A DNA stretch of 64,000 nucleotides from Podarcis vaucheri (taxonomy: Eukaryota), in assembly GCA_965113315.1 (NCBI GenBank), contig OZ220363.1, one strand, 5' to 3'. The translations under genes and the position numbers were made by a program. Of the stretch, positions 23,670 to 61,028 are shown one piece after another; positions within the stretch are counted from its first letter, which is position 1, and every line of letters begins with the position of its first letter. The notes below the pieces were generated by a model that did no database searches, had not been told where the DNA came from, and was given only the letters and a program-made list of their open reading frames with translations.

Positions 23670-24465
23670 TCATGGCCTATTGTGCGATGCGCTTATCATG
23701 ATGTTGGGCAAGGCGTTGCGCCGCTTCTTCCAGGAGCCCAGCTCCCGAGAGTACCTCCGTATCTGCCTGAACCAGTGGTGAGTCCGTGCCTTGTCTCCAT
23801 CTCGGAACACAAAAGACTCCCGCCTGATCTCAAGGAGTTCAAACGTGTCGTCGCAGTCGGGATCCACAGAGACCACACAGTTGCTGAGTCTCAAGGGCTC
23901 CCTGAGCAAGCTGAACTTCCCATTATTTTTGTCCCTAATCAGTACCAATACTGCATCTTTCACAGGCCCTGGCTCTCCGGGTTCAAAGCTAGACTCAGAG
24001 GCGCGTCTGATGTTGACCATGAGGAGCACTTGCATGTTCTGGAATTTTAAGGTCTTGCTGCCCTTTTTGACCCACTGCCCATCAGGAGGCTGGGCCAGCT
24101 GCAAGGGGCCTTCCATCACAAAGCGGGTTTCTTCCCGCAGCCAGCCCACAGTCTTGATAGCGGTTTCCCTCATTTCAATGTTAATGACCTCCCTGTTCTT
24201 CTTGCTGTCCTGGCGGAAGGAACGCAAAGTCCACGAGTTTCCTTCCTGCTTGGTCTTCATGTTTATGTGCTCCAGGTGGGACTCAATGCGGCTTTTGGCC
24301 TCCCTCAGGCTGCTGTGATCTGGGTGGTACTCAGTGGTGGCTTTGATGATGCGGCTCAGCAGAAGCGGGTACTTGGTGACTCTCTGTAATGGAGCCATGA
24401 GGAAGGACCGCAGATTCATGCGGCGAAGAGCTGTGTTGTCGTTCTGGGAAACATTGAGGAAAATC
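23670..24465 (-). CDS. Dbl-family RhoGEF, last coding exon (DH C-terminal half + PH-like domain)
   Basis: CCCTGCAG| acceptor. Encodes IFLNVSQNDNTALRRMNLRSFLMAPLQRVTKYPLLLSRIIKAT...LEHIN (DH conserved region 3) and a PH-like domain ending ...THHWFRQIRR; TGA at 23672-23670. Confidence 0.93.
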
Positions 24466-25738: not shown

Positions 25739-25884
25739 CTGAGTAACTCCTTCTCTTTTTCCAGTGCATTGAGCATGTTCACTGAAGATGACTGCTGGAG
25801 GCAGTACGTCTGGAAGGCAGGCAGCATATTGACAAATTCCAGGAATATCTCACCGATGCACACAGTCATGAGGTCATCATCGCC
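25739..25884 (-). CDS. RhoGEF exon (GDDDLMTVCIGEIFLEFVNMLPAFQTYCLQQSSS...KELLR)
   Basis: GGCAG| acceptor and |GTGAGG donor; 146 nt; DH 'IGEIF...F..YC' pattern; phases 0/2 fit the neighbouring exons. Confidence 0.93.
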
Positions 25885-27517
25885 CTGCCGACACACAACA
25901 CACAAGGCAATGCATCAGCCAGAGACGTGGAGGTACCAGAGGCCATTAAAAGCCACCTGCCTAATATTCAATTGTGGCGAATGTGCTGGAGTGGAGCTGG
26001 TGACATTGGTGTCTCTGCAGTTTATGGAGCTGAGGTGTGTCAGGGCAGCAACAAAGGCAGGGCTGTGTGGACATACCAGCAAGAGGAACAGATTGGTGTC
26101 CACACAGCCCTGACCGCATCACCGCCCTGCCCCGTCCCAGCCCTGCCCAGGTAATATGCAGCCCAGACCTACCACCTTGACTGCAACTGCTAATATAATT
26201 ACAAGGTGATCTTGGAGTACACGTTAGCAACACACCTCATGATAGCTGTTTCAACAATGAGTTTATATTGGCCACGTTTCCCATAAACTACAGCTTGAAT
26301 GCATTCTGAATAATTAAGCTCTTTCCGCACTGAAAACAAGCAAAAGTGCTACACGTTTTTTCCTTGAACCTATACCAGGAACTGCTAACTTCTGCACTCT
26401 ATTCTCCAAACAGTGGCCCAAGCCCAGTCACTAGGAATCACAAGGGAGAAAAATGCTGTTATACTCAGCTTCTGTTTGTGAGCTTCCCAAGGGCATCTCA
26501 TTGGCCACTGTGAGGACAAGATGGTAGGTGAGATGGGCCTTTGGTCTGATCTAGCAGGGATCTTTTTATGGTTTTCTACTGACTCTGGTAGAACATTAAA
26601 AGTGTATGCAAACACAATGCAAAAGTGATTAATCTCAGCTTGACAACCATGTTGTTATTCCCTTCCACGTCTTTTAATGATTTACTCTACTGATGTATAT
26701 TTTTAGAATCTGTTACATTTTGATTCCTAATTTAAAAAAGATAAAAGTATTTCACAAAAGACTATTGCAAGACCATTCCCCCTTTTTTGCCAGCATGAGG
26801 TGCTGTAGCACAGAGGCTCAGTTATGACACAGAGTACTACACTATTGCTGAAACAAAAACAAACATTCATAATTAAGGAAACATGCCATCCAACTTAAAT
26901 GGTTTGCTGAAATCCATTAGCAGACAGCATCCTTGTAAGTTAAACTGGATTTCAGTTGAATTTCATGGATTAAATCTGCACTTTTGAGGTTTTGAAACTG
27001 GAGACTGTACCACCCTATTCCCCCCAAAATTTCAACCCCATATATGTCAAAATAGAACGCTCAACATCTGAACCCTTTAAACTTACTGCATTAAAATTTG
27101 CATGCATGCACACAGATTTCTACGAAGTAGTGCAATGCAAATTTTGCATATATGATTTTGAGTTCTAAATTAATTTTAAAAATTGTGACTGGCAGAGCTG
27201 GAAATGGCTCATAGGATCTCTTTTACACCTTTGGTCTTATTCCCCAGCTCTTCTATTATCCTTGATTTCCCTCCTTGGCTCCCCAGCCTCTTAAAAAGTT
27301 CAACTACATCTCTGACGCAGTGGATAGTATTATCACATTTCCCCATTTTGGATGATTATATCTTGGCTTAAAAAGACACAAACCTTTTGCCCGCTTGCAC
27401 CACCAGCATGCAGTCCCTGGAAGGTCAGCTATGAGGAAATACAACCCTTGAACTGAAAAAGGTTCCTTGACCCTCGTCCAGGCTGGCTGGGAGTGACCCC
27501 CAAGGGTTTCACACAAG

Positions 27518-27797
27518 ACTCTTTTCCAACCCTACCTGGGAGATGCCAGAGATCAAACCTTGAACCTTTGTATATAAAACATGACCTCCGACACCAGGAA
27601 TAATCCCTCTCCTGCCTACTTGTCCATATACCCAGTACTGTCTTCTCCGATGGCCCTCTAAGGCAGAGGGTTTTCACTGCACCTGCTATCTGATCCTTCC
27701 CCTTCCCTCCCTTTTAAAAATGGCTAAGTCAGAGACTGAACCTGGAACTTTCTGCATGAAAAGCATGTGTTCTCCTGCTGAGCTCTGGCCCTTCCCC
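27518..27797 (-). mobile_element. tRNA-derived SINE fragments (two partial copies)
   Basis: ...CCCTACCTGGGAGATGCC...GAACCTGGAACTTTCTGCATG...CTGAGCT...GGCCCTTCCC pattern (reverse tRNA-like head); similar at about 18528-18640 and 28826-28980. Confidence 0.5.
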
Positions 27798-29179
27798 AAG
27801 GCGATTATCCGGCCTTCAAAATAATACTCTCTCCCGCATTTGACTTGCAAAGTTCAGCAACAGGGCGCAGAGCCGTGTGCCGTACACAGGGTGCTAGTCT
27901 GTAATAATGAACCATCAAGAACTGCTGTTCCAGCAAATTATAAGTAACCTTGAGTACGTTCAAGAAAGCCAGTTTGGAGCGTGGCTCAAATAACACTTAA
28001 AGGATTTAACTAGCCTTGCGCCTGTTCTTGGCCACCGGCAATTGTTGGCAGCCAAAGCCGCTTTTAATTGCTCTCCTGTGGGCAAGATGGGCTTCTTTGA
28101 ATGCTGCTGTAAAAATTAATTTCATGGTAAAAGGGTGTTTTGTTTCTTTCAGAGCCCTTAATAAAGCACAGGCCATAATATAAATACACAGCGGCGTGTA
28201 AATGCCATTCGCTTTGCTGAGGTGCTAGCGCAACCGTCTGCCTGCCAGCATTGTTTTCCTTCAGCCAATGGAAATGCGGTAATATTTGGAACTGATGGTA
28301 GGCCTCGCTGCGCAGCAAATTGAAAGTGCTAAAGGGGCAATTCCACATGTCATAAAGCTAGCCCCAGACTGGTCTGTTCAGGAGCACATGGGACAAAGGG
28401 ACTCAAGGGGTAAGGCAGCCTTCCCCGGCCTGGTGCCTGCCAGATGTTTTGGACTACAACTCCCATCACCCCTTACCATTGGACATGCTGGCTGGGGCTG
28501 ATGGGAGCTGTAGTCCAACAACACCTAGAGGGCACCAGGCTGGGGGAGGTTGGCATAGGGACGCATGCATTGCAGGGGGCTTTCTTAGGTGATTCTATGA
28601 TTCTACAAGGCACAAAGGATTTTTGAGATGCTTATCCACCAAGTGGTCTTGAATTCACGTAACTTGTCAATCACAAAGAAACACAGGCGACGTATGGTAG
28701 ACTGGGGGGCATCCAATCAGAGCTGAGGCCTTCTTCCCTAATCTAGAGGCAGATGTTTTCTCACACAATTGAAATGACAAAAAAAAAATTAAAAAGTTGG
28801 TACCCTTTGGAACAAGAGCACAGGGAAGCTGCCTTATACCAAGCCAGACCAACTAGCTCAGTACTGTCTTCTTTGACTGGTAGCATCTCTCCCAGCCCTA
28901 CCTGGAGATGGTGGGGATGGAACCTGGGACCTCTTACACGCAGTGCAGATGCTCTTACACTCAGCAATGGCCCCTTCCCTCTTTCAGCAGCTAAAATGAG
29001 TCAGACAGAGGCATACCCATTCTCAATTCCCTTACCTGCTCATTAGGCACTGTGCCTTTCTAATGAGTGGCACAACCTTTGAGTGCCATAGTAACAAAGC
29101 TACAGTGGCAAAAGTAGCTCATTATAACTGCACAGGGAAACGGAGAAGATATCTGAGACCACACACAAGCACACACTAC

Positions 29180-29808
29180 CTGCTCAAAGGCCTGCTCAAT
29201 CTCTTCCTGAAGGTACTCCAGGAAGTTTTCGTTGAGGTCAATGAGCTCCTGTATGTTGCCGAAAACCACCAGCAGCTGGTCCTGTGTTAGCAGGCCAGCA
29301 GCTTGCATGGGGAGGTAGAACTCTTCCTTGATGATGCGCAGGTCCTCCCCGTAGCTGGTTTCAGTGTTGACAAACTCCAGCACCGACTCCTTCCGCTCCG
29401 TCCGGCACTTCAGGCACTTCTCGCAGAGGATGGCCCGCCTCTTGTTCTGGTTCTGGACATCCGTCTCCAGCGGGAAGTGTCTCCCCCCACAGTCGGTGCA
29501 AGGCTGGTGGGCCTCCCAGGCCTGCAGAGATGCCAGCGTCTCCGACGCCTTGCTCCTCCACTTCCTACTCAGCACCTGGCTGATGCCGCTGTCCGCCCGC
29601 TCCATCTCAGCTGACCTCATCTTTGGCACCCCTCCACTGCTGGCATCGGCACTGTCCCTCTCGTCACTCCCGCCCACAATGCCGCTGTCGGCGCTGAGGC
29701 TGCTGACGTTGCTCCAGCGGTGTTTGGAACGAAAGGAGCCGCCCAGAATGCCGTGGTTCTCATCAACGTTGCTGCTGTAGTTGAGGTTGGCTTTCGTCAG
29801 CACTGGGC
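29180..29808 (-). CDS. RhoGEF exon: Ser-rich linker, Cys cluster and DH N-terminal half (ERKESVLEFVNTETSYGEDLRIIKEEFYLP...VFGNIQELIDLNENFL)
   Basis: CTGCTCAG| acceptor and CAG|GTAGTG donor; 629 nt, phases 1/0; DH conserved region 1 'E...TE.SY..DL'. Confidence 0.93.
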
Positions 29809-31014
29809 CTGAGCAGGGGGGGAAATAAAATAAGTCTATTTGTGGAACCTTTCCATTGTTTTGTTCCTCAGCCCTGTTCATCCAACAGTAAAAAGCTTGC
29901 CCTGTTTTGTTGTGTTTTTCTCCTTGTGACCAGGAAGGATTCTGCAAAGTACCTGAATACAGAGACAGGGAGAACCTAGTTCTTACTGATATGTTGCTAC
30001 GTTCTGGCATTTTCATACATACATAAAGATTTTCTTTTTCTTCATGCTAAGAAAAGCTTGACCTGATCGCTAAGCATGCTCTTAAAGGTACAGTAGCAGG
30101 TCATCTTTAAAAAAAATAAATAGACAGAAACCCTCCTTGTATTGTACTGGTTAAATTGTCCATCTAGCCTAATGTTATCTCCAAAGCCTTGGTCAAGGTT
30201 TCCTCAGCCTTGCCTGCTGAGATCCTTTAAATAGACCTAGACAACTCTTGACCCACCAATATATCCCGCTGGCTACATTGCTTGCTGGGTGCTTCTATAT
30301 ATTTGCAACCCCCCCCCCAAAGTAGAGGTTTATCAAATTCCTGCTGGGCCACAATGCACAACTGTGTTTAGTCTCATGGGCCACAAGCTAGCAGGTCTAC
30401 CTGACAATATGCAAAGAACATATTCTGCTTCTGAGTTACACTTCTCTCTTTAATTCAACAGCTAGGGAAGGATGCTCTCATTTAGAATTTGGCTCAGGTG
30501 TGTTGGAAGGAACAAGCCTGTCCTAATGAACTATGCAAAGAACAAGCGGAAGCCACCTATTGACGGCTCCATCTGCTCAGTATACTTGCAGAACAATTGT
30601 TCCAGGTTCTACTCACCTTTTGCTATATCATGCATGAAGTCAAAGAAAGCACTAGATTGAAGCTTAGCTCATGACACTGCCTTACCTTTGCATACCCCTT
30701 TTCCTGCATTTGCCAAGAGCCAGTTTGGTCCTGTATGGGCCCAATCCAGGCTATTGGCTGTTGCTATGAATTGTACAGACAGAAAGCACACTGGAGGAGG
30801 AGCTGCTACTGTATTCCCTCTCCTCTGAAGGGACCCTGGAATAAGAGGCTACAGCCGGCTGAAAACAAAGTCCACGGCAGTTGAGCGGGAGATGTTTGGA
30901 GGCTATCTCTCTGAATGATGGCTGCTAACCTAATGTCAAAACACACCCAGAACGATGAGTGACATGGACAGACCCTGCAAATCACACACAAAGCAAAAGG
31001 CAAGGGGGGCATAC

Positions 31015-31219
31015 TGGAGTCTCTCTCTTGCCGGCGCTTCTGGGCATGCTGCCGTGCTGCTGCAGCAATCTTCAGCTCCAGTTGTTTCCTCTTCACAGCA
31101 TCTGTTGGCATCGGATCACTGAAATGAGGCCGCAGCCGACACTCCCGTTGAGCTTTGGTGCAGTCCGAAGTTTCGTAGGAGATGTCAGAACTTGATCGGC
31201 GGCAGTTGGGGCTGGAGCT
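31015..31219 (-). CDS. RhoGEF exon (SSSPNCRRSSSDISYE...RPHFSDPMPTDAVKRKQLELKIAAAARQHAQKRRQERDS)
   Basis: TTTTCTTCCAG| acceptor and |GTATGC donor; 205 nt, phases 0/1 match the flanking exons. Confidence 0.85.
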
Positions 31220-31287
31220 CTGGAAGAAAAGCAAGGGGTGGTTGTGGGGAGAAGTTTCTACTAAACAATATATGAGATACTTAAATA

Positions 31288-31641
31288 AGGTAAAGGTAAA
31301 GGTACCCCTGACCATTAGGTCCAGTCAGGACCGACTCTAGGGTTGTGGCGCTCATCTCGCTTTATTGGCCGAGGGAGCCAGCATACAGCTTCCGGGTCAT
31401 GTGGCCAGCATGACTAAGCCACTTCTGGCGAACCAGAGCAGTGCATGGAAACACCATTTACCTTCCCACCAGAGTGGTACCTATTTATCTACTTGCACTT
31501 TGACATGCTTTCGAACTGCTAGGTTGGCAGGAGAGGGACCGAGCAACGGGAGCTCACCCCGTCGCGGGGATTCAAACCGCCAACCTTCTGATCGGCAAGT
31601 CCTAGACTCTGTGGTTTAACCCACAGCGCCACCCACATCCC
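31288..31641 (-). mobile_element. Full-length Sauria SINE with 13-bp TSD
   Basis: tRNA-like head at the right end and (ACCTTT)n tail at the left; TSD AGATACTTAAATA at 31275-31287 and 31646-31658; second copy at 60677-61028. Confidence 0.9.
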
Positions 31642-33202
31642 TTGAAGATACTTAAATATACATGGCCAAATCCGATACCCAGCGCCCACTACCTCTAAAA
31701 CCGTTGTTTCTCCTCATACCTTTCTGGGGGGGGGGCAACATCCTCACTCAAGAAAGGAAGCAAAATATGAGCTGTTAGTGTTACATTGAACACATGCTCA
31801 TGAAATCTGTGTGCAGCTGTTTAAATATGCACATAGTTTAATATTGGGGTGTCAGCAAGCAACATGTCTATTTTATCGGGCTGTATGGGAGAGTTGGCAG
31901 GATGGGCAACCATATGTGGACAGTGTATCGCAGCAGCAGCTTTACTCCAATTAAGATGGCAACAGCTCTCTTTCCCCAGCAACCACCGTTTGCAATCCAA
32001 ACCCAATGATTTGGATTTGTAAGTGCTTGACTGAGGATGAAACGGGCATTCCTCCCCATGCCTTTCCTCACACGCTTTCTGAAGGCTGGAACTTTATGTC
32101 TATACTGCATAGTTAAACAACTTTCCAACTGGTTTCATTGTTGTGGGTCATGACCAAGCGATCAATAAACACTTTTCCGTGAAGAATCTACACAGATGAC
32201 TCTGAGCATCCTCACGCAGCTGTTGTTCACCCAAAGCTCCAGTTGGGTGAAGCTAGGATAATAAAACAACTCTCAACCCAATTTTAAAATATTGTGGGCC
32301 CGATCCTGCTAACATCATGTGAACAGGTCCTATTGAAAGCAATGGAGAAAGTTAATCTCCAGTTCCATTGCTTTCAACGGTATTTTGGGCCACTCCAGAT
32401 ATCCTTCTTATTGCGCACATGTGATGATTCATATTCATGCTGGTATCGGGGCGGTTATCCACAATCCCGCTTTCAGTCGTTTGCACCTGTCATCGTTCTG
32501 AGGTGAACATACTTTTCAATTGGTGCATGTCCTGTAGCTTCCTGTTGAAACCCTGTAACTTTTCATATCTCAAATGTCCCAGGATTTTTGTTTTGTCCTG
32601 CATTTGTTTTGCTACAGAGCAAGATTATCCCTCCAGACAGGAATCATGCAGTAACACTGGGGAAACATTTGCAGAACAACTGATAAAGCAGAATAATCAT
32701 AGCTGTCAACTTTTCCCTTTTCTTGCGAGGAATCCTATTCGGAATAAGGGAATTTCCTATTAAAAAAAGGGAAACGTTGACAGCTATGAGAGTAACGTGT
32801 GGACAGTCCAGCGTCAATCCAACACAATTGCACTAATACTGCATGAATTACACACTATGGAATACACCTCCAAAATGCACCAGTCTGGAGGGGCCCTTAG
32901 TCACATGTAACTTTAGCTAGATTTGCACAGTAGTGTTGATGTGCCTTAGGTATCTTCATTCATTAGCTTGTTCCTCGCAGCCACCCAGAAGCAGGAAGGG
33001 TGAGATGGGGTGCGGGAAAACAGGAGAGAGAGGGGGGAAGAGAGGTAGAAGAAGGGAGGGAGGAAAAAGCATGGAGAGGAGAGCCAGAAGAGTATTGGTG
33101 ACAGGGGTGCAGAATAGCTGAGAGCTGTCATAGAAAGTAAAGTTACAGCTCCCTGACCCAACACTTCTGAAACCCCTTTCTGTCCCAGGCCACACAACTC
33201 AC

Positions 33203-33299
33203 GGTGGGTTGATGCGAGTCCTCCACAAAAGTGAGGTCATCCTTCTTAAGTTCACAGAATCCTTTGGAGGGAGGCTCAGGAGTAGCTTCGCCACTGCAG
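33203..33299 (-). CDS. RhoGEF exon (CSGEATPEPPSKGFCELKKDDLTFVEDSHQPT)
   Basis: CCCTTTTTTCACAG| acceptor and |GTGAGT donor; 97 nt, phases 2/0 bridge the neighbouring exons exactly. Confidence 0.8.
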
Positions 33300-36200
33300 C
33301 TGTGAAAAAAGGGACACCACCCCAATTAATGTCCTGCACAAACAGCAGTCCAGAGCCAACTCCATGCGTTGAAAGGAAAATGCATCTTGAAAGCTACAGT
33401 GTATTATTCTACAGGTCTTCTACCTTGCGGAGTCAAAAGCACCTCATATCTTCTTTCTCTTACATATGCCATTCCATAAATGCACTTCTACTGATGCAGT
33501 GGATAATAGGGTTGTGTGTGTGGCTTTTTTAATGAAACATGTTTGTAAATTTAAAGGGTTGCCCCCCCTAATATTTCTGTATAAAAGCAGCATCTAAAGT
33601 GCATGAAATCTTTAAGCTTCTTGACCCTCTTAGTTGTTTTATTTGCACTAAGATAGGAGACAACTTTCTGTTCTGTCATGAGAAAGAAAGTGCTCCCCTA
33701 AATTATCAGATACCATGAATAATTTCTCATTCATAAATAATGAGGAAACTGTATATCCAAGCCCCAAGGGAGGGAAGAGAGAGGACAAAACCTAGTCACA
33801 CCCACATATAGGATTAGCGGTGGCAGAAACAATATTTAGCATTTACGTAGCTCACTTGAAGTGTTCACTATACTCGGCACACAAATATGAATGGGTGAAG
33901 GGGTTTAAGATTTCCAGGTGTCAATCACACACAAAAATGCATGCTTTGCATATTTGATATATTGCATTTGGAGATCTTGTGAATCATCAGGAGACTGCAG
34001 TATCCTTCTGCCTGTGTTAAAGAACTGTATACCATTCTAGATAGTTGCCCTCTAGGCAACCCTTCATACAAAAATGCAAAATACATCTTTTAAAATAAAT
34101 ATTCCCTGTGTGGCCCATCACACATTTTCTCACAAATATACAGTGAATCTTTGGTTACTATGCTGCTTCATATAGCATTTTTAAAATAAAAAAATTACAT
34201 CATCTAACAAAACAACAACAGAGTAACTATACCAACTCTGGATAGTGACATTGAATAATATCTATATACATATTATTCCTGTGGCTTGGCTCACTTTCAT
34301 GAATCGCTTTGTAGTATCTGATATGAAGACAGCTCAGAGGTGTGTGACTTGTTCACTCCTGCTTTCAGCTTGTGGTACAGTGTTCTGAATTGATCTGTAA
34401 GGAGCTGGTGCATGGATAATCCTGCCTTGTGGGGAAGAAAAGGGAGGTTGGAGTCCATGCCAGTTCGGTGTTCTCCAACTCTGTGGCTCTGCCTAACTGG
34501 GATGACAGCGCTTTCTGCCCAACAATGTTATACACACCGTGGACAAAGTCCCAGCTTAGAATGCAGCTAGCTTGTTCTATTTCTCAACTGACGCTGGTTT
34601 AGAAGGAAATGCATCAAAATGCAGTAAAAGTATCTCCCCGCTTACGCATGTTCGACTCTCGCGTGGCCATGTATATGCTCGGTGCAGGAAAACAATTAAA
34701 TAAATAGATTTAAACTTCAAAAAGGCAAGAAAAAGGCAAAAGCAGTCCTAAAAGAGCACAAGAACTGCAAAAATGGTGCGAAAAGAGCAGAAAAAAATGC
34801 TAGCAATCCCAGGAGCCTTTGCAACTGCAATCTCATGAGCCTTTGCACCAACCTTTGAGTTGAGTTTGAGAAAGGAGGTTTGGAGGGAGCTATTGTGGTG
34901 GAGTTTGGCATGTTTTGGGTGGCGCTTGGCGGGGAAGGTGTTTACAAGATTTAGATGTGGCTAATATTCTGTGTGCCCTGCTTCCCAAACCAGCTGTGGA
35001 AGTACATTGGATGCAGAATAAACAGAACTGTGAACACCACCTCACTTTTCCAGAGCAAGAGAGTAGGTAGGCATTTCAGGTGATATGCAAAATGGCAAAT
35101 TATATTAAAACTACTGGGAATTTTCCTTTGTGGGAAGTTATTTCTCTTTATATTCAAGAAATCATATACACACAGTTCCATATTTATTGGATACTGGAGT
35201 GCTCTTATCTGTACATTAGTACTCATTATATATATCCTCTCAACTGCCTCTTAGCCAACTGTTTTTGCATCTATTCTATCTCTTTCTCCCAGGTGAGAGT
35301 AATTCTCCCATATGGTATTAGAGCAAGGAATTAATGTAATGGAAGATTTCTGGATGGGGGAAAATGTACATAATGGTACGGCAACTATTTGTGGCTGAGG
35401 TGGTTCAATCAGAGATGTGCCTAATTCGAATGAAGCTAGGATGATCAGTATATGAGGTGGGTGTTGTTTTTGTTTCTGCTAGACATGGTAACTGGCTTCA
35501 GTTTTTGGAGAAGGGTAGTCCATTTGCCTGCTTCACTGAAAAAATAATTGTTCCCAAGGCTCCACCCTATTTACTACCTCACTGCTGCAGATCCCAAATG
35601 GTCCAACTTCATCTTTGATTTTATTATGGAACCATCTTTATCCACCTCTTAAATCAATGAGCAATACTTCAATCTTGAGGCACCCTGCCATCTGGCATTC
35701 CTTCATCTTCTCTACAAGCTGGGCCTTTCTGTTATGGCTGAATTTTTCCTCTTCTCACTTTCCCCACATCATCCTTGACATTGGCTGCTGTTTTGACCTT
35801 GAAAGAAAACAATATTTTGCCCAGCCCAGCAACTTTACGCACTTTAATATGCTCAAATCCAAATATTTTTATTTTTTATTTTTTTAACCTTGGGAGTTTT
35901 CTTTCCTTAACTGCTTTCTCTGTCATTGTAAAATTTTTGCCTGTCTTTATTTAATTCCTTATATACTGGATGCTCTGATTTCCTGCCCATTCACTGACAT
36001 GGCTATTAATAATGCCCTAGGTTTTCATCTTTCTCTGTCTTCAGAAGTCAGATTCCTCAGAAAGCCTGGTAACACAATTCACAATCAAAAGGTAAAACAG
36101 GTAATAAATCAGGATCTCCTTTCAATCATGCTTTCAACCATTTCTTTTTTGCTCAAGTAAAAAAAAATGCTCTACAATTCATGACAGGCTTTAGATTACT

Positions 36201-38870
36201 CCATGAAGATAAAACACTACAAATTAGAGGCTCAGAATTAAAACATTAAGCTGCTTATAAATGTGCTGAGTAAATTACATTTGGAAGAAAGTTCAGAAAT
36301 AAAGGGCAGATGTGTTGCATGTAATTCAAACACACACACAAAATTCCAGCAGGATCTTAAGAAGCCAATGACAAGAATAACCCAGGAAGTCTTCCACTTC
36401 ACATGAACGAATGCTAACTTAATCTGAAATGATAAAATTGTCATGGGTGAAAAGGGTATCAATGGCCAGTAGTTATGAACGCTATATTAGCTCCAGTATG
36501 CCTTTCACTACCAGTTGCTGGACAGCATAAGTGCTATTGCGCTCATGTCCTGCTTGTGGGCTTCTTGTAGGCATCTGGGTGGCCACTGTGGTAACAGGAT
36601 GCTGGACCAAATGGACCTTTGGTCTGATCCAGCAGTGCTCTTCTTATGATTTTATGTGCTGAAAGGATGCTGCTCCATGTAAACAATTGACTGTATGCAG
36701 CAGCTCACCTTATGGACTGGCCTCACACCAGATCTCCCCATGTTATTCATATTACTGACAGGTTTTCTTACAACAAGCACTCGGTCAAATCATGCGGCAT
36801 GGGGGAAATCCACATGGCAAGGCAAGGCACACCTGGCCCCATGGAACAACTGCCACAAGGACCCAATTTCAAGCAGCCTCAACACCACATGTTGCTGAAG
36901 TGAACCTAAGGCTTGCAACCCTGTCATTTCACTGCCAAATCCTGAGAATATGTTGCCTCTCAAATCTAGTGACACCCCTGCCGCTGAGCCAGAAACTCCC
37001 ATCGTCAAGACCAGATCCTCCATGAGATTGCTAAAGCTCTGGAAGAAAATGACAGCTGGGTTTTGAGCAAATAATGGCTCTCAGTTTTACAATTTCAAAG
37101 GGAAACTGTTTGGTCTCATAAGCTTTTGACTCAAAGTCATGAGAAGCTTGGCAACTGGTTGAAATGACCATTGTGCTTTTCATAGAAATGAATTAATTTC
37201 AGAAAGCTCTGAATGTAAGCAAACTGAGCTTGATAAAGTCCATCTATGGCAAAAGGGATGTTGTGAACAAAAGAAAATAACACTGTGCGATGGATCTCAG
37301 TCCCATACTTAGAGAACCCATGGCTTATAAGAGCAGAGGCTGGCTCACCTGAGCAGGAGGAGGTGTTTTACTGCACTTGGGACAATGGAATCTCTATGTA
37401 AGTCAGACAAGAGAGCATCAATTTTTTTAGACCAAAGGGCTGCATTTTCTCAGTCTCCAAGCTCCTGTGTGGTTTTTAATGTGTGAATACCCCTTTCATT
37501 GACTTTTGCTGCTCTGATGGGTTTCACCAGGCTGTATATTATGTATTTTTTGTTGCGTTTATAGTTTTCTTGTTCTCATTCTTGTTTGTTACTTTTATTT
37601 TCAAATTTTGTATTGCCCCATGTTTGCACATCGATAAATAAGATTTTCTGGTTTATTGTGAAATGCTTCTTTCCCCTCCTAGCTCCAGAAAGAGAAACTA
37701 GGAAGCCTTGGCTTCCTAGTACATCTGAATCAGGGTTCATGGTTTGTTGATCCGTAACAAACAAACAAACAAACAAACCATAATTACAAGCAAACTTTAA
37801 GCCATAGTTGTTGGCCTATGACATGTGGACTTGTTAGGGAACAACAAATCATGATTCCTAGCTTGGATGTAATGGGAAGCCAAGACTTCCTGGTTTGTTC
37901 ATCGTGCCTGGGGGGAATGAGGAGGGAGTGATTGAGCATGCTGCTCATTTACAATAAACCACAATCTGCCAGAAAATCTGACTTATCATGATATGTGGAT
38001 GTATATGTGATAGAGCATAGCATAAATCTTTATATATAAACCAATAAGGGTGCCATTCAGTCACCCCGTATGACCCTAAAATAGTGACTCCTAAGCTTAT
38101 GGTTCCAACAAGGGAATTCAGTCTCTGCCTTGAACTCATCATGGAAACTATCCCTCATAAGATTTGTGTTGTTACGTTGCCCCAAATACACACTGCAGGA
38201 AATCTACCAATATATTAGGTCTCCATAACCATTGATAGCTTACAAAGGGCAGCATTTTTTGAATTATTTGCCCAAGTCACCTGAAAGTCAGTTTTCACAG
38301 ACTTTAATATTATGTTTTGTGTCACCTCCATTCACATGACTGACATTTCCTCCAACCTTCTGCCCAAAGTCAATAATTAACCCACCCTGTGAAGATCTAG
38401 ATGTGTGTCAATGAACAAGGAGGACCAGTCATTTCAGTGGCTCAAGAAACAGAGCAACCCCCCCCCCCGAGGCAGAGGGAGTCCCCACCCTCTCCACAAT
38501 CCCCAAGACTACCCTTCTAGATTGTTAGGCAAACTCCTTCCTGACATCAGATATAGCAGTTAGTTAAAAACCCCAGCTTCATCAGTTCTCCCAAAGTGGC
38601 ATATGGGAAAATGTCTGCACAAATTAACACAGCCCCAACACTGTCTCTTTCCCTACAGCTGCCTGATACCTCAAAGAAAGGAACTCCCCACAGGTCAAAA
38701 GGGGGAAAGCTATTAATGGCGTAAGTGTCTGTGCAAATTATTACACCTCTGCAGCATACTGATTCAGCAAGAAAATTCTATAAATTACTTAATGCAGCTA
38801 AATTTGAAAGTGCATTTCTAAGTACCCTAAAACTGAAATTGCTCTCAAGAACTCTAACAGAGTCGGTTAC

Positions 38871-40423
38871 CTCTTCTTAATGAGGTCCAGTGCAGAGCCT
38901 ATAAATTCATCCTTCATTTTCTGCAGCTTAGCTCCATAGCTGGATATATCTGTCGCTTCTAATAGCAATGGGCAGCAAGAAGACTGGTTTTCAGGCACCA
39001 CTGGCTGTCCAGCATGGTGGAGGACTTCGCTTAGTTGTCTTGCATTCAATCCCTGAGTCTCCCCTTCAGCAAAAGTTTTCCCTCCCTCCTCCCTAAGGGC
39101 TGCAGCAGACTGTAGAGGTGGTCTTGGAATTGGACTCGAACAAATGGGGACCGGGATTCTATCTGAAGTTGGCACCTCATAGCACTTGTCCCTAGCCATA
39201 GGCATGTTCATCAGGCAGAAGCTCCTGTCCCATGTAGATGAATTATCTTGATAGCCAACAAGGCCAGAAGTGCTCTGGGTATTTTCATGAAATACATCAT
39301 CATAATAATCTATCGTTGCAACCGTTTCTTTGGCAAGAACTTGCTGGGCACCTGAACAAGGGTTCTGGTTTCTTTTTTCTTCCAACTTTTGGGTTCCTTC
39401 CTTCACATCTTTTGTTACTTCACCGCTGCCACCGAGAAAACATGTCTCCTTGATTCTCATCCGCTTGAACTCTTCAAAAGTTGGAATGTAGAGTCTCTCT
39501 TTGAAGTCTCCTTTTTTGCTCAGCTCCAAAATCCTTTTGGTGTCTCCTTCCCCCTCATATCCCTTTAAGGATCCAGTCGTTTGGGACTTGACCATGTCCT
39601 GGCCATCACTGGCACAATGGAGAGTCAAGTTGGGCGAGCTGTTCTGTCTCCTGATCTGCAATCTTCTCCGAGCTTCTTGCTTGATGTCTTCTGGGTTTGT
39701 TAGTCGGCGAGAAAAGCAAGGCCGATGACTCCCCAGAGCTGTCCATGGCCCGTGAGTGAGGGTGGCATGCTGCACAAATATGGTGCAACAGTTCACCGAA
39801 CAACCGTTCTTATATTGCTGGCATGCCCGGCATTCAGAGCATTCCCTTGGAACCAGGTCATTCAAGGAAACCTGAGGTCTGAGAGGCTTGCAAATCTCTG
39901 CAGCTTTACTACTGTGAATTCGAAGTTTTTCCTTTAGGGTTTTTTTGGCATCCCCGTCCACGGAGGAGAAAAGCCACGGAGGCACTTTGGCACAAGGAGG
40001 AAGGGTGACGTCTCGCGCTGCAGGTGGAATTCTGTCCAACGCGAGAGGGAAGTGTCGGCAACATTCAGGTGAGCTGGGGGATGGAGTACCTTCTGCAGAA
40101 CACTTTGACCAATGAGCTGTGCCTTTGTAACGGACGACAAATTCTTTGTCTACATTTCCATAGCGGGGATGGCAATGCGGATCAGCACCCGTGGCCCAGT
40201 GTAGATTCTCCACACTTCGATACAGATGTGCCCCTGCAGTGCTGTCTGCTTTGCTCACAGGATTAAAGTCCCCGGTAAAAATGCGAGCGTCCAAGTTCTT
40301 CAGAGGATGCATGCTGCTAACTGAGAAATCCTTTAAGCCATGTTGTGCGTACAGCTGATTATTCTGGCAGCTCAAAATTACCCGACAGTGTTCCTGCCTC
40401 TCATCAACGCTGATGTATGTCAT
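38871..40423 (-). CDS. RhoGEF large N-terminal coding exon (from MTYISVDERQEHC... to ...DEFIGSALDLIKK)
   Basis: Open frame of more than 500 codons ending at AAG AG|GTAACC (phase 2, matching the next exon). The exon acceptor is at 40615; the first ATG after the in-frame TGA (40567-40565) is 40423. The start codon is uncertain. Confidence 0.8.
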
Positions 40424-47400: not shown

Positions 47401-48201
47401 AAGCACTGTTCCAAAGAGACACCAACATTGTGGCAGTTATTTTAAAAAAACCCTGTACAGATAGTCAAACTATTCTGGGGTGAATGTGGTCACCTGTACC
47501 ATTCTGTTACAGATTTTTTTTTTTAAAAAAAGCCAATGATAAGTGGCAGATGTGTGGTGAAATATGAGGTAAAGTGGTACCCTATCATCCTTGGGGACAA
47601 CTAAATGTGACATTAAAAGCACAGCTTGGCATAGCACATATAAAGAGTAGCCAATGCGGTGTCCTCCTGATGCTGTTGGACTATAGCTTCCATAATTCCT
47701 AATCACTGTCCATGCTGTCTAAGGCTGATGACAGTTGTGATCCAACAACATCTGGAGGGCTTCAATTCAGCTACCTCTGGTGTATATCTTTTAACAACTG
47801 CGAATAGCAGCTCTCTGCATCTGTGACTCAAGAAAAGGCATATCAGGCATGGGCACATGAACACAGCCAGCTAAGTTTACACTCCCCCCCTCCCCCCGCA
47901 ACCTTGGCAGAAAATCTGACAACCTTAATGCTATGACTGACCCCAGAGCAAGATCCCAGGTCTTCCTCTCAGTGCTTACCTAGGTGCTATCTAAAGACCC
48001 AGCTAGATTTTATGCACAGATGGGTGCATCTTTCTCTATCCACCTTTTTCTAAAAAAATACCCAAAAGTGAGACTGAACGTTTTACTGGAAGAAACTTTT
48101 CTTGGATTTTCCCGAACTAACCCCATCCACCCAACTGCTTTTGGTGGGAATAGATTTTGCTATTACTTAAAGGTGCAAGCTCCAAAGTCTTCAGAAGGAA
48201 G

Positions 48202-48292
48202 AATAAAAAAATTCCTTCCAGTAGCACCTTAAAGACCAACTAAGTTAGTTCTTGGTATGAGCTTTCGTGTGCATGCACACTTCTTCAGATAA
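48202..48292 (-). mobile_element. Short Penelope-like element terminus with 12-bp TSD
   Basis: TTCAGAAGGAAG at 48190-48201 and 48293-48304. The insert contains the Penelope-type end ...TTGGTCTTTAAGGTGCTAC and a hammerhead core. Confidence 0.75.
48256..48291 (-). ncRNA. Minimal type I hammerhead ribozyme
   Basis: Minus strand TAT-CTGAAGA-A-GTGTG-CATG-CACAC-GAAA-GC-TC-ATA: CUGANGA and GAAA boxes, 5-bp stem II, palindromic AGCT stem III, UC cleavage site, 3-bp stem I. Confidence 0.75.
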
Positions 48293-48301
48293 TTCAGAAG
48301 G

Positions 48302-48390
48302 AAGGTTAAGTATCTAGGCATTTGGTTAACATCAAGAAACATAAACTTATATAAAAACAACTATGAAAAAATCTGGCTTGATGATATATT
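48302..48390 (+). mobile_element. L1/Tx1-like ORF2 reverse-transcriptase fragment
   Basis: Translates KVKYLGIWLTSRNINLYKNNYEKIW (KYLG motif of L1-clade RT). Confidence 0.6.
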
Positions 48391-49426
48391 TTTGTTAAAA
48401 TTATTGTGCTGAAATATGTAATTATTTTTTATTTTTTTATTTTTTTATTTTTAAATAAATTCTTCAGAAGGAGAAAAAAATGGGAAAAGATCTATTTTGG
48501 ACATTATCTATGGGTAAAGTTGACCATAACAAAAAATGACAGAAATGCAAGCAAGTGCCAGTTTTTTGTAGAACTAAATTTGCTTTTATTGAAATGTTAT
48601 TCTTTATTTATAATATGTTACCGCATATTTGATTTGATTATTGCAATCAAAATGCTGCTTTTTATTTGGTTAAGGATTGGTTACTGTTGCAAACTGCTTT
48701 AGGCTCAGCTTGGTTGTTAGAAAAAGCAGCACACAAATATTAAGGTAACACAAATCAAGAATTGTGCAAGCCCGTTCCCCTACTGATCTTCACTCCCAAA
48801 GTCTATTAAACACTGGTATGACAGTAAAGATAAGCTTTTAAGGGTTTTGCTGATGCATGAAATTAAAAAGAGTAAATTAGATGCTACTTTAACGGTATTA
48901 TCAGAAACCATGTGTGGTTTTAAAAAAGAAAATGAATAGTAAAAGTTTGTGTATGAGTGAGTGAGCATGCAAGCGCATTTTTATCAAGACTGCAGTGCTG
49001 GGAGATTTTGCTCTTCCCAAGAACTCTCCTCCCTCCACACACACACCAGGCATGGGGAAAATCACACACGCCCTTCAGCTTACTACTAGGGTTCTTCTTT
49101 TGTGGGGAGAGAAGTGTGGTTGCCAGCATGGTGCAGTGGTTAGAGCGCTGGACTAGGAACTGGTCGAAAAGGATCAAATCCCCATTTAGCTATGAAGCCC
49201 ATTGGTTGACTTTGTGGGGCCAGAACTGTGAAATGCACAAGGGGCACAATTCCTAGAACACTGCGTTGCTAGCTAGCTAGTCACTGCCTCTTGACAATGC
49301 GTATTTCCCCATCCACGTGTCTGCTGTACGGATGGCAGGAGAAACCTATTGTTGAAAAAGGAGAGTTGCAATTGGTTAATTTAAATCTATATGTCACTGG
49401 TGTGGCCTGATAAGATTGGTCTAGAA

Positions 49427-49474: not shown

Positions 49475-50277
49475 GAAGAGTCCTTCCCCCCTGTTTCCTC
49501 TTCTGCCATTTTTACCATATAAGGAAAGGAAGCTGCTAGCAGGATGCCCCACAGCAACCACCATGCAGTCTTGACTCTCACTGCGAAATCTGCCTCCTGT
49601 CCTGGTGGCTGAGGATGATGCAGGAAGGAAAAAAGCCACGTGCCCTTTGCCTGATCTGGGGTTCCTGGCAGGAGGGCATGCTAGCTGGCAGCCTCCTATG
49701 CCAGATCCTAGGAATCACCCCCAGTAACGTGGCCGGTGAAAACAGCCTTCCCTAATTAAGATCAGGAGCAAGAAGTTAAATGGAGCAGCAAGACATGCAT
49801 TGTAATTTTATTCTGCCATCCTGCCTAACCTTTACAAGTGTTCTGCCTCCTAATTAGAACATAATTTTACTTTTAAACATGAAAACGTTTTGAATGAAAT
49901 TATTCTGGAGGAACCATATTTTGTGGCACATTGCCCAGCTCTGCACTGTTCCGAAAAACTTACAGCTTTTTATCTGCTTTGGCAAGCATTACGTGTAACG
50001 GTGGCTGTGCCTGTTTTGGGAACTGAGCACCCTAAACCTGAGCCTGAACTGAGGAGAGAGAAAGGGGAAAAACAACCCTCAGTTAAGCAGCATGGCTCTG
50101 TGAAATGGCTGCACGGTTACTTTATGACAGCTGATGGACTTTAGGATCTTTTGCTAACTGGGAAGATCACGGAGCAGAAGAGCTCAGGATTTCTGAAACA
50201 GGAGCCCAAGACTTGGCAGAATTGGGTTTCCCCATAGGCAGTGTCCCACTTAATGACTTCTTGTTGCTATGACATTA

Positions 50278-50537
50278 CAGTCATACTTCGGGATAATTAT
50301 GCTTCAGGATAAGTATTTTTGTGTTGGGCTCCACAGCGACCCGGAAGTAACGGAGCGCGTTACTTCCGGGTTTTGCCACTCGCGCATGCGCAGAAGGTCA
50401 AAATGACATCACGCGCATTGGCAGAAGTGGCGAAACGCGACCAGTGCACGCGCAGACGTGCTGTCGCGTCTTACGTTCTGTTTGGGATTTGAATGGGGCT
50501 CCAGAACAGATCCCGTTCGCATCCCGAGGTACCACTG
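50278..50537. mobile_element. Tc1/mariner (Tigger-like) MITE A
   Basis: TA-CAGTCATACTTCGGGA ... TCCCGAGGTACCACTG-TA termini; CpG-rich interior. Confidence 0.75.
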
Positions 50538-50539
50538 TA

Positions 50540-50765
50540 CAGTGGTACCTCGGGTTACAGATGCTTCAGGTTACAGGCTCCGCTAACCCAGAAATAGTAC
50601 CTCAGGTTAAGAACTTCACTTCAGGATGAGAACAGAAATCGTGCTCCGGCGGTGCGGCAGCAGCGGGAGGCCCCATTAGCTAAAGTGGTACCTCAGGTTA
50701 AGAACAGTTTCAGGTTAAGAACAGACCTCCAGAATGAATTAAGTTCTTAACCCAAGGTACCACTG
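50540..50765 (+). mobile_element. Tc1/mariner (Tigger-like) MITE B
   Basis: TA-CAGTGGTACCTCGGGTTA ... TAACCCAAGGTACCACTG-TA; same family as 56905-57139. Confidence 0.85.
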
Positions 50766-51757
50766 TATTGATCCATAGACTTTAGATAGAGGGAAGTTCG
50801 AGGGAAGCCATCATAAAAGCCAGGGACCCTTTGAGAAAGGCCAGTATTTGCACACAGATGGATTGAAAGGACTAACTAAACTCCTTTGATGATACTCTCT
50901 GCCTTTTAGCTTACTTTTGTCATTTTTTAAAAAAGGGTATCACTCAGCAAATGTCCAAACCTGTAGGTATAGAAAAGGGATTGTGACGGGGGCATGAGAA
51001 ACAGTCAGGTAGGCACATGGGGTGTGTGCATGAGCGTACTAGTAAAACAGGTGTGAGGCAATCTATGGCCCTCCAAATATTGCTGAACTACAACTCCCAT
51101 CACAGCTGGCTATCAGCCATGCCTGCAGGGGCTGATGGGAATTGTCATTCAGTAACATCTGGAGGGCCAAAGGTTCCCCCACAGTAGCTATTTACTTATT
51201 TTATTCATTTATTTAATCCACTCTTCTCTAATGCTCTTGCAGTTTATTGCTTATGATGGACAACCGGCGTAAGTTCCACTGGCTGAGCCCAAGATCTGCC
51301 AAATTCAAACTCCCTCATCCCAGCAGATATTGATTTTGGATTGAGCTCTAAGTCTTGAGGGATACTTAAAACACAAGTATCACACAACCTAAGAGCAGCC
51401 AAGTCCCAGGATGAGAGGTATCTGGTTGCCACTTCTGTAGCTGCAACTTTTTTCTTGTCACTTCCTATGCCATGAGGTCTATGGTGAGGATTAAAAGGCT
51501 TGCAAATTTCTGCTGTGCCTTTGCACACACTCATGAGCTGATCAGCAGCGCCTTCAAATTCTGCTTTTGACAGAGAGCCACATCTTTACCCGCCCACAGA
51601 TGCAGTGTGGTGGGTATTGCTTGGGAAGTTGGACAAAATGGCCTGGTGAGCCAGAGATTCCCCATTGCTGCCCAACAGTTATGCTGAAAGAACCCAGCAC
51701 TCAAACTGCCTGATTCAAAAAGAGGTGTGGAACCCAGCCTTAAGCAAACAGTGGATT

Positions 51758-55000: not shown

Positions 55001-56904
55001 TGGGTAAGGCGAGAATTGCTCATGTGAGCCAGAACTCAGAAGGCTTGTGATCTTTCTTACTTGGAAACTTAAGCATAATGAGCTACTTACTCATGTAGGG
55101 AACCTTACGATAGATGGCCTAAATCTGCTTTCAGAGTTGACCACAAAGCTAACCAATGTTAAATTGCCCTTCAGTTTTCCAGAGATATCACTGTTTGCGG
55201 TTACATATTCAGACACCCTTTTAATTCAGCAATAAGATTGTGGGAGCTGGCTGTCGACGTTATCTACCATTGTATAGACTGTCTGGCTCCTAAAAAAAAT
55301 CTCCCTGAACCATCAGAGTGAAAAGCTCAAAAATGTTTGGAAAGGTCTCCACTGCAGTTGTCGGTTTCAGTCCACAAACAGTATGTAATGCTACGTAATT
55401 TATGACTTTCCTTCCCCCAATTTACACTGGGTTTCTTCTGAATTGAAATGAATGGTGAGGAATAGCATAATTAATTATGTAACATTTCACCATAATGGAC
55501 AGCAAGACAAATAATGTAGTTTTTGTAGGAAGATGAACTGCAGTGGAACAGAAACAATGGTGCGTGTTACGAGAATACAGGGTGGGATGGAATCTGATGC
55601 CTTCTTACATCACTGGTCAGTATTGGGTAATAGCTGCTAGATGGGCAACCTGGACATACTTTTTACCTTTACCTGATACAATGGGAGATGCAGCTGGTGA
55701 GGTGAGGGGGGAAGTAGGACTTGGCCACAGGGATTTAGGGAAGCAGCATGTTCTTATAGGTGGGGGCTGAGACGTGGCAATAGCAACAGAGAGAGGCTGG
55801 CTCTGAGCTGAATAGGTGCCCACCCAGTAACAGCACAGCAAGATACAGATGTCAGGTATAGGATGTTGCTGGTGCAGCACCTTCCACTTCTGATTGCAAC
55901 TGACCAACCACTCCCTGAATCCACTGCCACTTATCAACATCTCCTCCGACCTTAATGTAGGAACCAATGTAGTTATTGGTGTGGTGGAACAGAGCTGCCC
56001 TTTCAACACCAGCATCGCTAGAGTACACCTGGATCTTCTTTGGCGATCACTCGTAGCCGAGTAAGATTGTCTTCAATAAACACGGTTTTTACATCTGGAT
56101 GGGACCAGAGTGGGTAACCCTGCCCAACCCCATTCCTGTCCAGATACACCGTAGTGGTGCCTGTGTCGGGAAGGAGGCTCTGTCCCACCACACTGACTGC
56201 TACTGTGTGGGTCCCCCTCCTGCTTGGCCTATGCTCAGTGGCTGTTGCAGAGTACCACTGTAGGAGATATAAAAGCAAACATCTCAGGATTGTGGTGTCC
56301 TTCATAGATCCTTGTTCCCCTCTACAGTTGGCAAACACAAAATTGGCAAGTACCCTTATGAATATTAATTTGTGGCACAATTTGTCAGAGAATTCAGCAT
56401 TCCCTAGTGCAAAATACTAGACTGTGGTTTTGTTTTAAAGCACATCTCTGTGCATAGATGCCACAGGCAAATAACTGAGCAGATGAACCCTGTGTATGAA
56501 GCAGCTCCTAACTTAACCTTTATACATCAGAGAGAGATTTTACCTTGTTTGTAAATACCATCCGGCTGTCACCACTACGTGTAGTTATGATGTCTCAGAG
56601 AACTTAATGATCACTTAAGAAAGGCAAGGGGAAAATGAGTTGCATGACCTTTGTGATCCCATATCCTGTAGGTCAGCATTATTTAAGGCAACTGGGACAA
56701 CGAGGAACTGAACATTAGGCCTGCCAGATGAACAGATGGATGGATGAAAGCCAGCGCAATCCATCTTCCAGCTTTCCCCTCCACAGAGCAGAGTGACATT
56801 CAAGCCCATCTATTTCCTCACATACGTGGGGAAAGCACGTGGAATTTCACAGCAGCTCTTTGGCTGATGTGGAGGCTGACTACAATATGCTTTATGGCAC
56901 AATA

Positions 56905-57139
56905 CAGTGGTACCTCTGGTTATGAACTTAATTCATTCCGAGGTCCATTCTTAACCTGAAACCGTTCTTAACCTGAGGTACCACTTTAGCTAATGGGGCC
57001 CCCCGCTGCCGCTGCCCCGCACTATTTCTGTTCTCATCCTTAGGTAAGCTTATTAACCAGAGGTACTACTTCCGGGTTAGTGGAGTCTGTAACCCGAAGT
57101 GTTTGTAACCCAAGGTGTTTGTAAACCGAGGTACCACTG
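56905..57139 (-). mobile_element. Tc1/mariner MITE, inverted copy of the 50540-50765 family
   Basis: TA-CAGTGGTACCTC ... GAGGTACCACTG-TA; the interior is the reverse complement of MITE B (GAGGTACCACTTTAGCTAATGGGGCC). Confidence 0.85.
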
Positions 57140-59363: not shown

Positions 59364-60676
59364 GTGTTCAGGAGGAAATCACTGACTGGTACTGAAGACT
59401 CACACTCAATGTGGCTACTTATCTAAATGTTTTGCGCCAAATACTTAAATTCTCTCAAGCCCACAACATTCTTCCGGCCTGCCAAGACTTAAGCACAGAT
59501 TTCTGCACTTTCTCTTTCTTTTTATTTATTTTATTTAACAAGATTTATATACTGCTTGATTGTAAGAAAGCCTCTTAAGTGGTCTACAAGAAATATTATC
59601 AATAAAACAGTTAAAAACATTAAAAACAATTAAAATGATCAGCAAAAAAGATTTAAAAACATCAACATATTAAATGTCTGGAAAGCCTAAAAAAAATGCT
59701 TTTAAGTAGGCACCAAAAAGGGTGCTGTACTCTTTCTGCTTCTTATAGTCATCATGCTGAGGCTGTGACTGTAAGAACTCAAGAGCTTGCTGGATTAGAT
59801 CAGGGGTCCATCTATCCCCTGCTGTGGTCACAATCAGAACCAGACCACACACCCCATGCTTGCTACTCACAATGGGAGGAAAGTGGCAGTAAGAGCTTCT
59901 CCTCCTGGGGAATGGAAGGGCTACGGGATGGGATTCCAATTGGGTCCATGGAAAGTAGAAAATCCTGACCCCTCTTCACTAGGGTCCTTTCCCAGCTCAC
60001 CCTCATGCCTCCCATACTAGTTATTTTTTGTTTTGCTTTTATAATGAACCACACACACCAGGGCTAACCATCTGATTAGTATCATGTCTAGTTGGGCCCA
60101 ATTTAGCTCAGTTTTCCCACATGCAATGTGATGGTTTGAAACCACGATTCGAAATGAGAAACAAGAAAACAGCGTGAGCTGCCGAGATCTGCTCCCTGCT
60201 TAATCCCACTCCAGCTGAAACAGAGCTTAATGCTTCCCTCCTGTACACATCAGCCAAGGGATTAAGTCCAGCGGAACACAGGCTACGCACACACTATACC
60301 TTCAAAGCTCATTCTAAGAACAATCCCGACCCCTGCTCAAAGAATTCTGGGCACTGTAATTTGCTACAAGTTGCAATGGTAAGACATAAACTACAGTGCC
60401 CAGAATTCTTTGAAGGGGGAATGCTTTGGGGGTATAGCCTGCACACAGCAACAGTGGCACTTACCCCAAGTAAACATGCAAAGGATTGCCACTACATGCA
60501 GGTGTAACTGCATTTGCCAAGACTCATCTCTTGTTACCTTGCCTCTCCTTTCCCACCCACTCCTCGGCTGCCCCCTGCAAAAATGCAGAATGTAACCTAC
60601 TCAGGGCAGGGACCTGTCTTTTCGTTGGTTGAGAAACTCTGTGAAGAACTATGTGCACAGATGGCATATGGCGGAT

Positions 60677-61028
60677 AAAGGTAAAAGGACCCCTGACCAT
60701 TAGGTCCAGACGTGACCGACTCTGGGGTTGCGGCGCTCATCTCGCTTTATTGGCCGAGGGAGCCGGCGTACAACTTCCGGGTCATGTGGCCAGCATGACT
60801 AAGCCGCTTCTGGTGAAACCAGAGCAGCACACAGAAATGCCGTTTACCTTCCCGCCAGAGTGGTACCTATTTATCTACTTGCACTTTGATGTGCTTTCAG
60901 ACTGCTAGGTTGGCAGGAACAAGGACCGAGCAACGGGAGCTCACCCCGTCACGGGGATTCGAACCGCCAACCTTCTGATCGGTAAGTCCTAGGCTCTGTG
61001 GTTTAACACACAGTGCCACCTGCGTCCC
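60677..61028 (-). mobile_element. Full-length Sauria SINE
   Basis: Colinear with 31288-31641; imperfect TSD CATATGGCGGATA / CATATGGTGGTTA. Confidence 0.9.

Follow-up and report, generated by a model that had tools for sequence, protein, structure and literature searches.

The stretch of Podarcis vaucheri DNA analysed here (64,000 nucleotides of contig OZ220363.1, hereafter the window) carries on its minus strand a RhoGEF gene and, upstream of it, a 91-bp insert (48202..48292) read on the same strand, which abuts an older 158-bp piece of L1 type on the plus strand (48303..48460). The RhoGEF gene (23673..40423), recognized by Pfam PF00621 and resolved by an exon map into six coding exons, is the orthologue of arhgef49, the name given to its fish orthologues, and is considered only as context; its first coding exon is 98% identical to a Podarcis muralis protein and at most 81% identical to the proteins of other lizards, a comparison which by itself makes a lacertid the most likely source of the window. 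On the minus strand its Met1 falls at 40423, which puts 7.8 kb between it and the insert, in keeping with the co-orientation and the distance of about 7 kb given in a preliminary description of this DNA. Comparison with the N-termini of 120 homologues revealed no credible match to a coding exon upstream of 40560; one match with an E-value of 0.021, on the opposite strand and containing a stop, looked spurious and was rejected. The CpG-rich bin at 50001..50500 could be a promoter. The best 120 homologues listed belong to reptiles, birds, amphibians and fishes, with no named mammal among them.

The insert is enclosed by two exact copies of a 12-mer, at 48190..48201 and 48293..48304, in agreement with the coordinates first proposed for this repeat. 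The 12-mer has no other copy in the 64-kb window on either strand and the repeat cannot be extended on either side. Exact 12-bp repeats spaced by 60 to 150 bp occur ten times in the window, and such a repeat is by itself weak evidence of an insertion. Elsewhere, at 19354..19600, a CpG-rich stretch contains a cluster of exact 12-mer repeats with a spacing of 69 to 142 bp, which suggests a short tandem array.

The decisive observation comes from the empty site. Assembled contigs from four of the 24 listed runs were compared with the window: three DNA runs (X1, X5 and X11) and a fourth, X17, guessed to be RNA. In X1 and X5, which bear different organism labels, a single contig per run connects 48189 directly to 48293 and thus skips 103 bases; the 12 letters at the joint fit either side, so that a single copy of the repeat is present and the insert is absent in two of the three DNA runs. 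Over the 381 bp of the left flank, these contigs differ from the window by 3 letters (X1) and 2 letters (X5), plus indels. In X11, which is more distant (10 differing letters over 390 bp), no joint was found, the flank contig ending at 48201 with four unaligned letters. No filled allele was seen among the pieces listed for X1 and X5, it being understood that contigs show presence and not absence; their cover at 48440..48800 is little or none, which proves nothing. X17 contains other copies of the family in longer records that span the cut site, lacks the target locus, and is uninformative on expression there. Since the empty site of two relatives retains one repeat copy, the 12-bp repeat is the true target-site duplication of a young insertion, and both the youth and the mobile nature attributed to the insert in the preliminary description are upheld by the comparison with relatives that it had called for. 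The three DNA runs also share one extra C at 48168, 22 bp from the insert, which points to a 1-bp deletion private to the window or to an error of assembly. At 47809..47812, X1 carries some 470 additional bases (record positions 160 to 631), and the contigs of X5 and X11 break as well, which probably reflects a deletion in the lineage of the window or an insertion in the relatives.

The insert is part of a very high-copy repeat family that extends past both of its ends. The summed depth of two bins lying wholly inside the insert is 1.7 to 4.4 million in the three DNA runs, while the unique left flank has 11, 28 and 107, an excess of four to five orders of magnitude in every one of them; depth is not to be equated with copy number. 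Loose ends in all four runs indicate that other copies of the family continue past 48291 and past 48202, and this copy is thus cut short at both ends. A majority continuation is present on each side, with an agreement of 0.36 to 0.58 at 48291 and 48202. Beyond 48291 the agreement is just 0.36 to 0.44 over 30 letters, and many copies must therefore end there or belong to other subfamilies. A second point at which family copies commonly diverge on the 3' side lies at 48217. The 3' segment of the insert (48202..48255, minus strand), downstream of the ribozyme motif described below, ends inside a U-rich tract beyond which the family continues, the tail being missing here; at the other end, base 48292 differs from the majority letter of the family. 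The alternative first offered, a truncated or a non-autonomous unit, tips towards extreme truncation, a separate non-autonomous unit being conceivable but needless when the members extend past both ends.

The loose ends carry further information on the family. In all four runs the consensus beyond 48291 starts with C on the plus strand, that is, a G on the RNA strand which would provide a fourth pair of stem I. In X11 the upstream consensus, read on the RNA strand, is a pyrimidine tract with CAG at its end, two bases ahead of the UAU of stem I; on its letters this sequence resembles a splice acceptor, and in the Penelope element of D. virilis an intron is described as ending at the 5' end of helix I (PMC4209133). 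Other copies of the family show one opposite-strand joint and, among the joints shown, 12 re-entry joints, most of them 1 to 8 letters from the edge of stem I. These joints resemble the inverted and partial-tandem forms reported for Penelope-like elements (PLEs; PMC8557442); no tandem or inverted partner is present at the insert locus. Variants reaching at least 2% were listed at five places in 48232..48253 and at C17, where a C-to-U change, an admissible exchange at this position, accounts for 19 to 31% of the depth in the three DNA runs; none was listed in 48260..48291, the comparison covering copies at least 85% alike and leaving differences at alignment ends unlisted. Among copies so selected, this distribution would fit a conserved hammerhead core. 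The window contains other repeats: a second high-copy short repeat at 47690..47770, flanked on either side by loose ends in the runs compared and having similar stretches elsewhere in the window; an interspersed pair in direct orientation (31291..31641 and 60676..61028, 90% over 353 bp) and another in inverted orientation (50547..50777 and 56893..57116, 84% over 231 bp); and short palindromic repeats at 6452..6539, 32697..32789 and 60330..60418.

The 5' part of the insert, as read on the minus strand, is a minimal type I hammerhead motif of 36 nt (48256..48291) with the sequence features listed for this class in PMC4209133. From 5' to 3' it reads UAU, CUGAAGA, A, GUGUG-CAUG-CACAC, GAAA, GC, UC and AUA, as the preliminary description had it. 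The UAU (48289..48291) forms the 5' strand of stem I and the AUA (48256..48258) its 3' strand. The core box CUGAAGA (48288 to 48282) is followed by an extra unpaired A (48281) between positions 9 and 10.1, and then by stem II (48267..48280), which comprises 5 bp, where the class calls for at least 4, closed by the pair G10.1-C11.1 and capped by a 4-nt loop; its predicted pair probability ranges from 0.52 to 0.91 according to the flanks, and its 14 nt constitute a perfect palindrome. Next come the core GAAA (48266 to 48263) and the palindromic AGCU (48263 to 48260), which would form an intermolecular stem III: the monomer has no helix III, and positions 15.2 to 16.2 are palindromic as in the published minimal hammerheads. 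The UH box at the cut site is present like the other two, CUGANGA and GAAA, with U16.1 at 48260 and C17 at 48259, so that the predicted cleavage bond is the one between 48259 and 48258, as had been proposed. Loop II contains an ATG whose reading frame, in the insert copy, runs for 9 codons before a stop.

Stem I has 3 bp in the insert because this copy lacks the fourth pair carried by the majority of the family. The preliminary description had taken this short stem as a reason for doubting activity; the length is correct, and it is not unusual in the class, helix I being of 3 bp or less in 29 of the 56 rows of a published figure, counted by hand (PMC4209133). The statement that the insert is essentially just a ribozyme does not hold, the hammerhead occupying 36 of the 91 bases (40%). 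A degenerate minimal-hammerhead pattern found one match in the window and none in 100 shuffles; the pattern was fitted to the motif and the result speaks for its rarity only. A search of Infernal type brought no such confirmation: Rfam gave no match at gathering score in the whole window, and in 48100..48400, with E-values accepted up to 10, four chance-level matches, none to a hammerhead family.

Self-cleavage of the lone insert copy is unlikely, since published monomers are inactive and the stem I of the insert, three A-U pairs and thus the weakest form, is almost never formed in the folding models: its probability is 0.10 in a 47-nt fragment and at most 0.003 with 91 nt or more. The whole 91-bp insert is no more stable than its shuffled versions (z 0.63). 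The palindromic nature of the 14-nt stem II enables two RNAs to pair through it, and in the dimer models the structure built on this palindrome reaches -28.0 kcal/mol, as against -11.0 kcal/mol for two monomers and -7.1 kcal/mol for the double hammerhead. Nearest-neighbour folding ignores the non-canonical contacts of the hammerhead core as well as proteins, and these models consequently lower the odds of activity while cleavage stays conceivable. For published minimal hammerheads, the cleavage of monomers is reported as undetectable and that of dimers as slight (PMC4209133); the work of Lunse et al. on dimer cleavage by PLE hammerheads is treated in a review (PMC6765202). In the case of PAc, a PLE of the anole, the ribozyme is described as cleaving only with protein, and mutants of its core still inserted (PMC11167929). 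As the insert copy spans the cut site, its template was uncut or re-joined. The self-cleaving insert of the preliminary description would thus be better regarded as carrying a lone minimal hammerhead that, on the published assays and the folding models, is not expected to cut and that was copied straight across its cut site.

On its right side the insert borders the older L1-type piece, in which translation and protein matches point to the end of a reverse transcriptase (RT) domain followed by an A/T-rich stretch, with motifs that we take to be of the L1/Tx1 type. Its translation gave four matches at E-values of 0.001 or less, with 61 to 70% identity, and one of the matched proteins has a weak RVT_1 hit (E 0.015) below the cut-off; the clusters of look-alikes of this protein are chordate, one of them being named reverse transcriptase and one having RVT_1 in 31% of its members. 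The position of the insert at the edge of such a fragment is as first described, and the identification of the fragment as an L1-type RT is weakly supported by these matches. The contigs of the empty site include at least the first 40 bp or so of the piece (side=52 at the joint), and its depth is that of a multi-copy sequence. The piece has a candidate 12-bp duplication of its own, an exact 12-mer found in two places only, at 48188..48199 and 48461..48472; no empty site for it was seen in the runs compared. Its left copy overlaps the duplication of the insert by 10 nt, and the younger copy therefore appears to sit at the junction of the older insertion, two insertions with 12-bp duplications having taken place 2 nt apart.

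Among known systems, the insert most resembles the minimal hammerheads of metazoan PLEs (Cervera and De la Pena 2014, PMC4209133), with which it shares the core boxes, a short stem I, U-rich flanks and occurrence as dispersed single motifs. The features given there for the class are an unpaired base between positions 9 and 10.1, the G10.1-C11.1 pair, palindromic positions 15.2 to 16.2 and covarying families, and similar motifs are reported in a turtle and in snakes (PMC4209133). The closest row of the published Fig. S3 is that of the turtle Chrysemys picta, which shares the layout and the AGCU palindrome of the insert and departs from it by a single compensatory change in each of stems I and II; this row bears no mark of a link to a recognized PLE open reading frame (PMC4209133). 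The figure includes no lacertid row, and the insert is set apart by its 14-nt palindromic stem II and the missing fourth pair of stem I (PMC4209133). A close parallel for the anatomy of the whole insertion is PAc, a Poseidon-type PLE of Anolis carolinensis which belongs to a different sequence family (Frangieh et al. 2024, PMC11167929): as in the insert, the 3' end is internal and an intact hammerhead is templated, and the tail is optional, as it may be in the family of the insert. The 3' end of the insert lies in a U-rich tract 57 nt past the cut, whereas that of PAc lies in an AC-rich stem-loop 85 to 92 nt past it, and PAc prefers AT-rich targets, unlike the target of the insert (PMC11167929).

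The unit of the endonuclease-bearing (EN+) PLEs (Craig et al. 2021, PMC8557442; Arkhipova et al. 2013, PMC3846280) has in common with the insert 5' truncation, a hammerhead near the 3' end, a short target-site duplication and landing in other retroelements, and its optional tail of 30 to 40 bp may have a counterpart in the extension of the family past 48202; it is distinguished from it by the open reading frame and the tandem or inverted partner that the insert locus lacks, and by duplications of 8 to 10 bp instead of 12 (PMC8557442, PMC3846280). The non-LTR retrozymes (Cervera and de la Pena 2020, PMC7229834; Li, Clavereau and Pollet 2026, preprint 10.64898/2026.07.22.740005) are, like the insert, non-coding, hammerhead-bearing and PLE-related, with duplications longer than 4 bp; they are described as tandem units with canonical hammerheads and circular RNAs (PMC7229834), whereas the insert is one unit with a minimal hammerhead. 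Retrozymes are defined by at least two consecutive hammerhead units; the window has one motif, and blastn found no second copy in it. The insert is most likely a 5'-truncated, tail-less PLE insertion. In the literature, as covered by titles and abstracts, repeat libraries and most subscription journals being beyond reach, we found no account of its lacertid family or of a clustering of 5' ends at the ribozyme edge.

Metagenome contigs yielded 14 matches to the motif in 13 loci, none of them of the insert's family; one locus was the only one to match the insert by blastn, at 79% over 39 nt confined to the core. Five of the 14 matches, picked by eye for a possible stem I, were aligned with the window and show two-sided changes of stem I in three of its four pairs; in view of this selection, the covariation describes the motif class and not the family of the insert. 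One 1.4-kb metagenome contig contains inverted minimal hammerheads (277..304 and 1357..1384), an RT-like motif and a weak GIY-YIG match (E 0.017, below the cut-off), and is probably an unrelated Penelope-like insertion. The motif had no match in viral contigs, and no locus homologous to the insert was found in either the viral or the metagenome set.

The model we favour, to which we give a probability of about 0.78, is that the 91 bp were inserted recently, with duplication of 12 bp of the target, and are a dead-on-arrival copy of a terminal (pLTR-like) repeat of a Penelope-like element; the hammerhead of such a lone copy is predicted to be silent. Since the parent RT/GIY-YIG reading frame was not seen, membership of the Penelope group rests on the motif and the anatomy and is best called most likely. 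The triggering event would be the nicking of the plus strand after 48201 by the GIY-YIG endonuclease, followed by priming of the RT inside the U-rich tract of the element RNA, which would leave out the tail. The cDNA would then comprise 57 nt and run on through the uncut ribozyme to the outer edge of stem I at 48291 (90 nt in total), leaving one unmatched base, 48292, at the junction, and a second nick 12 nt away would generate the 12-bp duplication. The ribozyme would be a passenger of the terminal repeat, and its cleavage would require a partner copy and probably a protein of the element. The nicking and priming steps are modelled on the anole element, for which it has been described that reverse transcription can start internally, that the tail is optional, that protein assists the ribozyme and that uncleaved RNA is the main template of insertion (PMC11167929). 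An antisense template, as proposed for PLEs (PMC3846280), is possible for the insert as well. PLE motifs are mostly dispersed singles, "probably related to truncated PLEs" (PMC4209133). The Penelope reading has to accommodate a nick site that is not AT-rich, unlike the preference of the anole element (PMC11167929), and a duplication slightly longer than the 8 to 10 bp of the rotifer examples (PMC3846280). The low agreement past 48291 suggests in addition that the ends of many copies lie close to the ribozyme edge, an outcome that random truncation would not predict.

This last observation leads to a tentative extension that we consider rather unlikely: the 5' edge would be programmed, the RT stopping or the template ending at the ribozyme edge, next to the sequence resembling a splice acceptor, thereby producing re-copiable units of 90 to 130 nt throughout the genome, with the hammerhead serving to end cDNA synthesis. 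A related and still less probable explanation is that of a short non-autonomous family of about 90 to 130 nt, bounded by the ribozyme, which would itself be transcribed and would rely on Penelope proteins for its copying in trans, in the manner of a SINE or a monomeric retrozyme. The extreme abundance of exactly the insert segment and the heterogeneity of the sequence past both ends speak for it, as do the reptile retrozyme consensus, which is reported to average 176 bp with monomers being common (preprint 10.64898/2026.07.22.740005), and the rotifer terminal repeats, which are described as able to drive integration in trans on their own (PMC3846280). It has to contend, however, with the majority continuation at both ends, with the further 3' divergence point at 48217 and with a locus made of one unit and no tandem; no promoter is evident in the 91 bp, as judged without a tool, and 5' truncation already predicts abundant short 3' ends (PMC8557442; preprint 10.64898/2026.07.22.740005).

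The overlap of the two duplications raises the question of a route foreign to Penelope, that is, templated break repair or the L1 machinery acting at a site that the older L1-type insertion had rendered fragile. Besides the 10 shared nucleotides, this very improbable route could draw on a 7-nt match between the target (48195..48201) and the 3' part of the element RNA (48212..48218), which forms an inverted repeat across the junction; such a match with the last 25 nt of the RNA, noticed post hoc, is reached by 2.5% of random 12-mers of the window. The insert lacks a poly(A) end, however, its 3' end at 48202 is also the divergence point of many other copies, and the duplication, clean and accompanied by no deletion, is in keeping with staggered nicks. 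A 6-nt match linking the duplication to the 5' junction, reached by 5.9% of random 12-mers and unused at the junction, was discarded. Of all the readings, we give the least credit to one that keeps the Penelope origin and makes the ribozyme active: present in sense orientation in an upstream transcript of arhgef49, it would be cut in trans as a dimer and would lower or reshape this transcript. The position of the insert on the gene strand, 7.8 kb upstream of Met1, the CpG-rich bin upstream of the insert and the stretch 48260..48291, with no listed variant of at least 2% as against five in 48232..48253, would be compatible with such a role. Against it stand the homologue N-termini, devoid of credible matches upstream of 40560, the dimer energies, in which the double hammerhead is outdone by the two monomers and by the palindrome dimer, the poor cleavage of published dimers (PMC4209133) and the youth of an insertion that two relatives lack. 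The silent, truncated Penelope-like copy is the reading that we retain.

In conclusion, the insert provides a clean presence/absence marker, lineage-restricted and backed by a proven empty site; as a single locus it carries little weight, being one among very many short copies of an already described kind. Its interest lies in the hammerheads of PLEs, whose function is called unclear (PMC8557442): the template of this copy ran through an intact cut site, and the copy starts where the ribozyme has its edge. Could the role of the hammerhead be to end cDNA synthesis rather than to cut RNA? This would be its role if the 5' edge were programmed, and if the ribozyme edge proves to be a hotspot throughout the family, lacertid genomes would offer a very large sample of the places where the cDNA ends.
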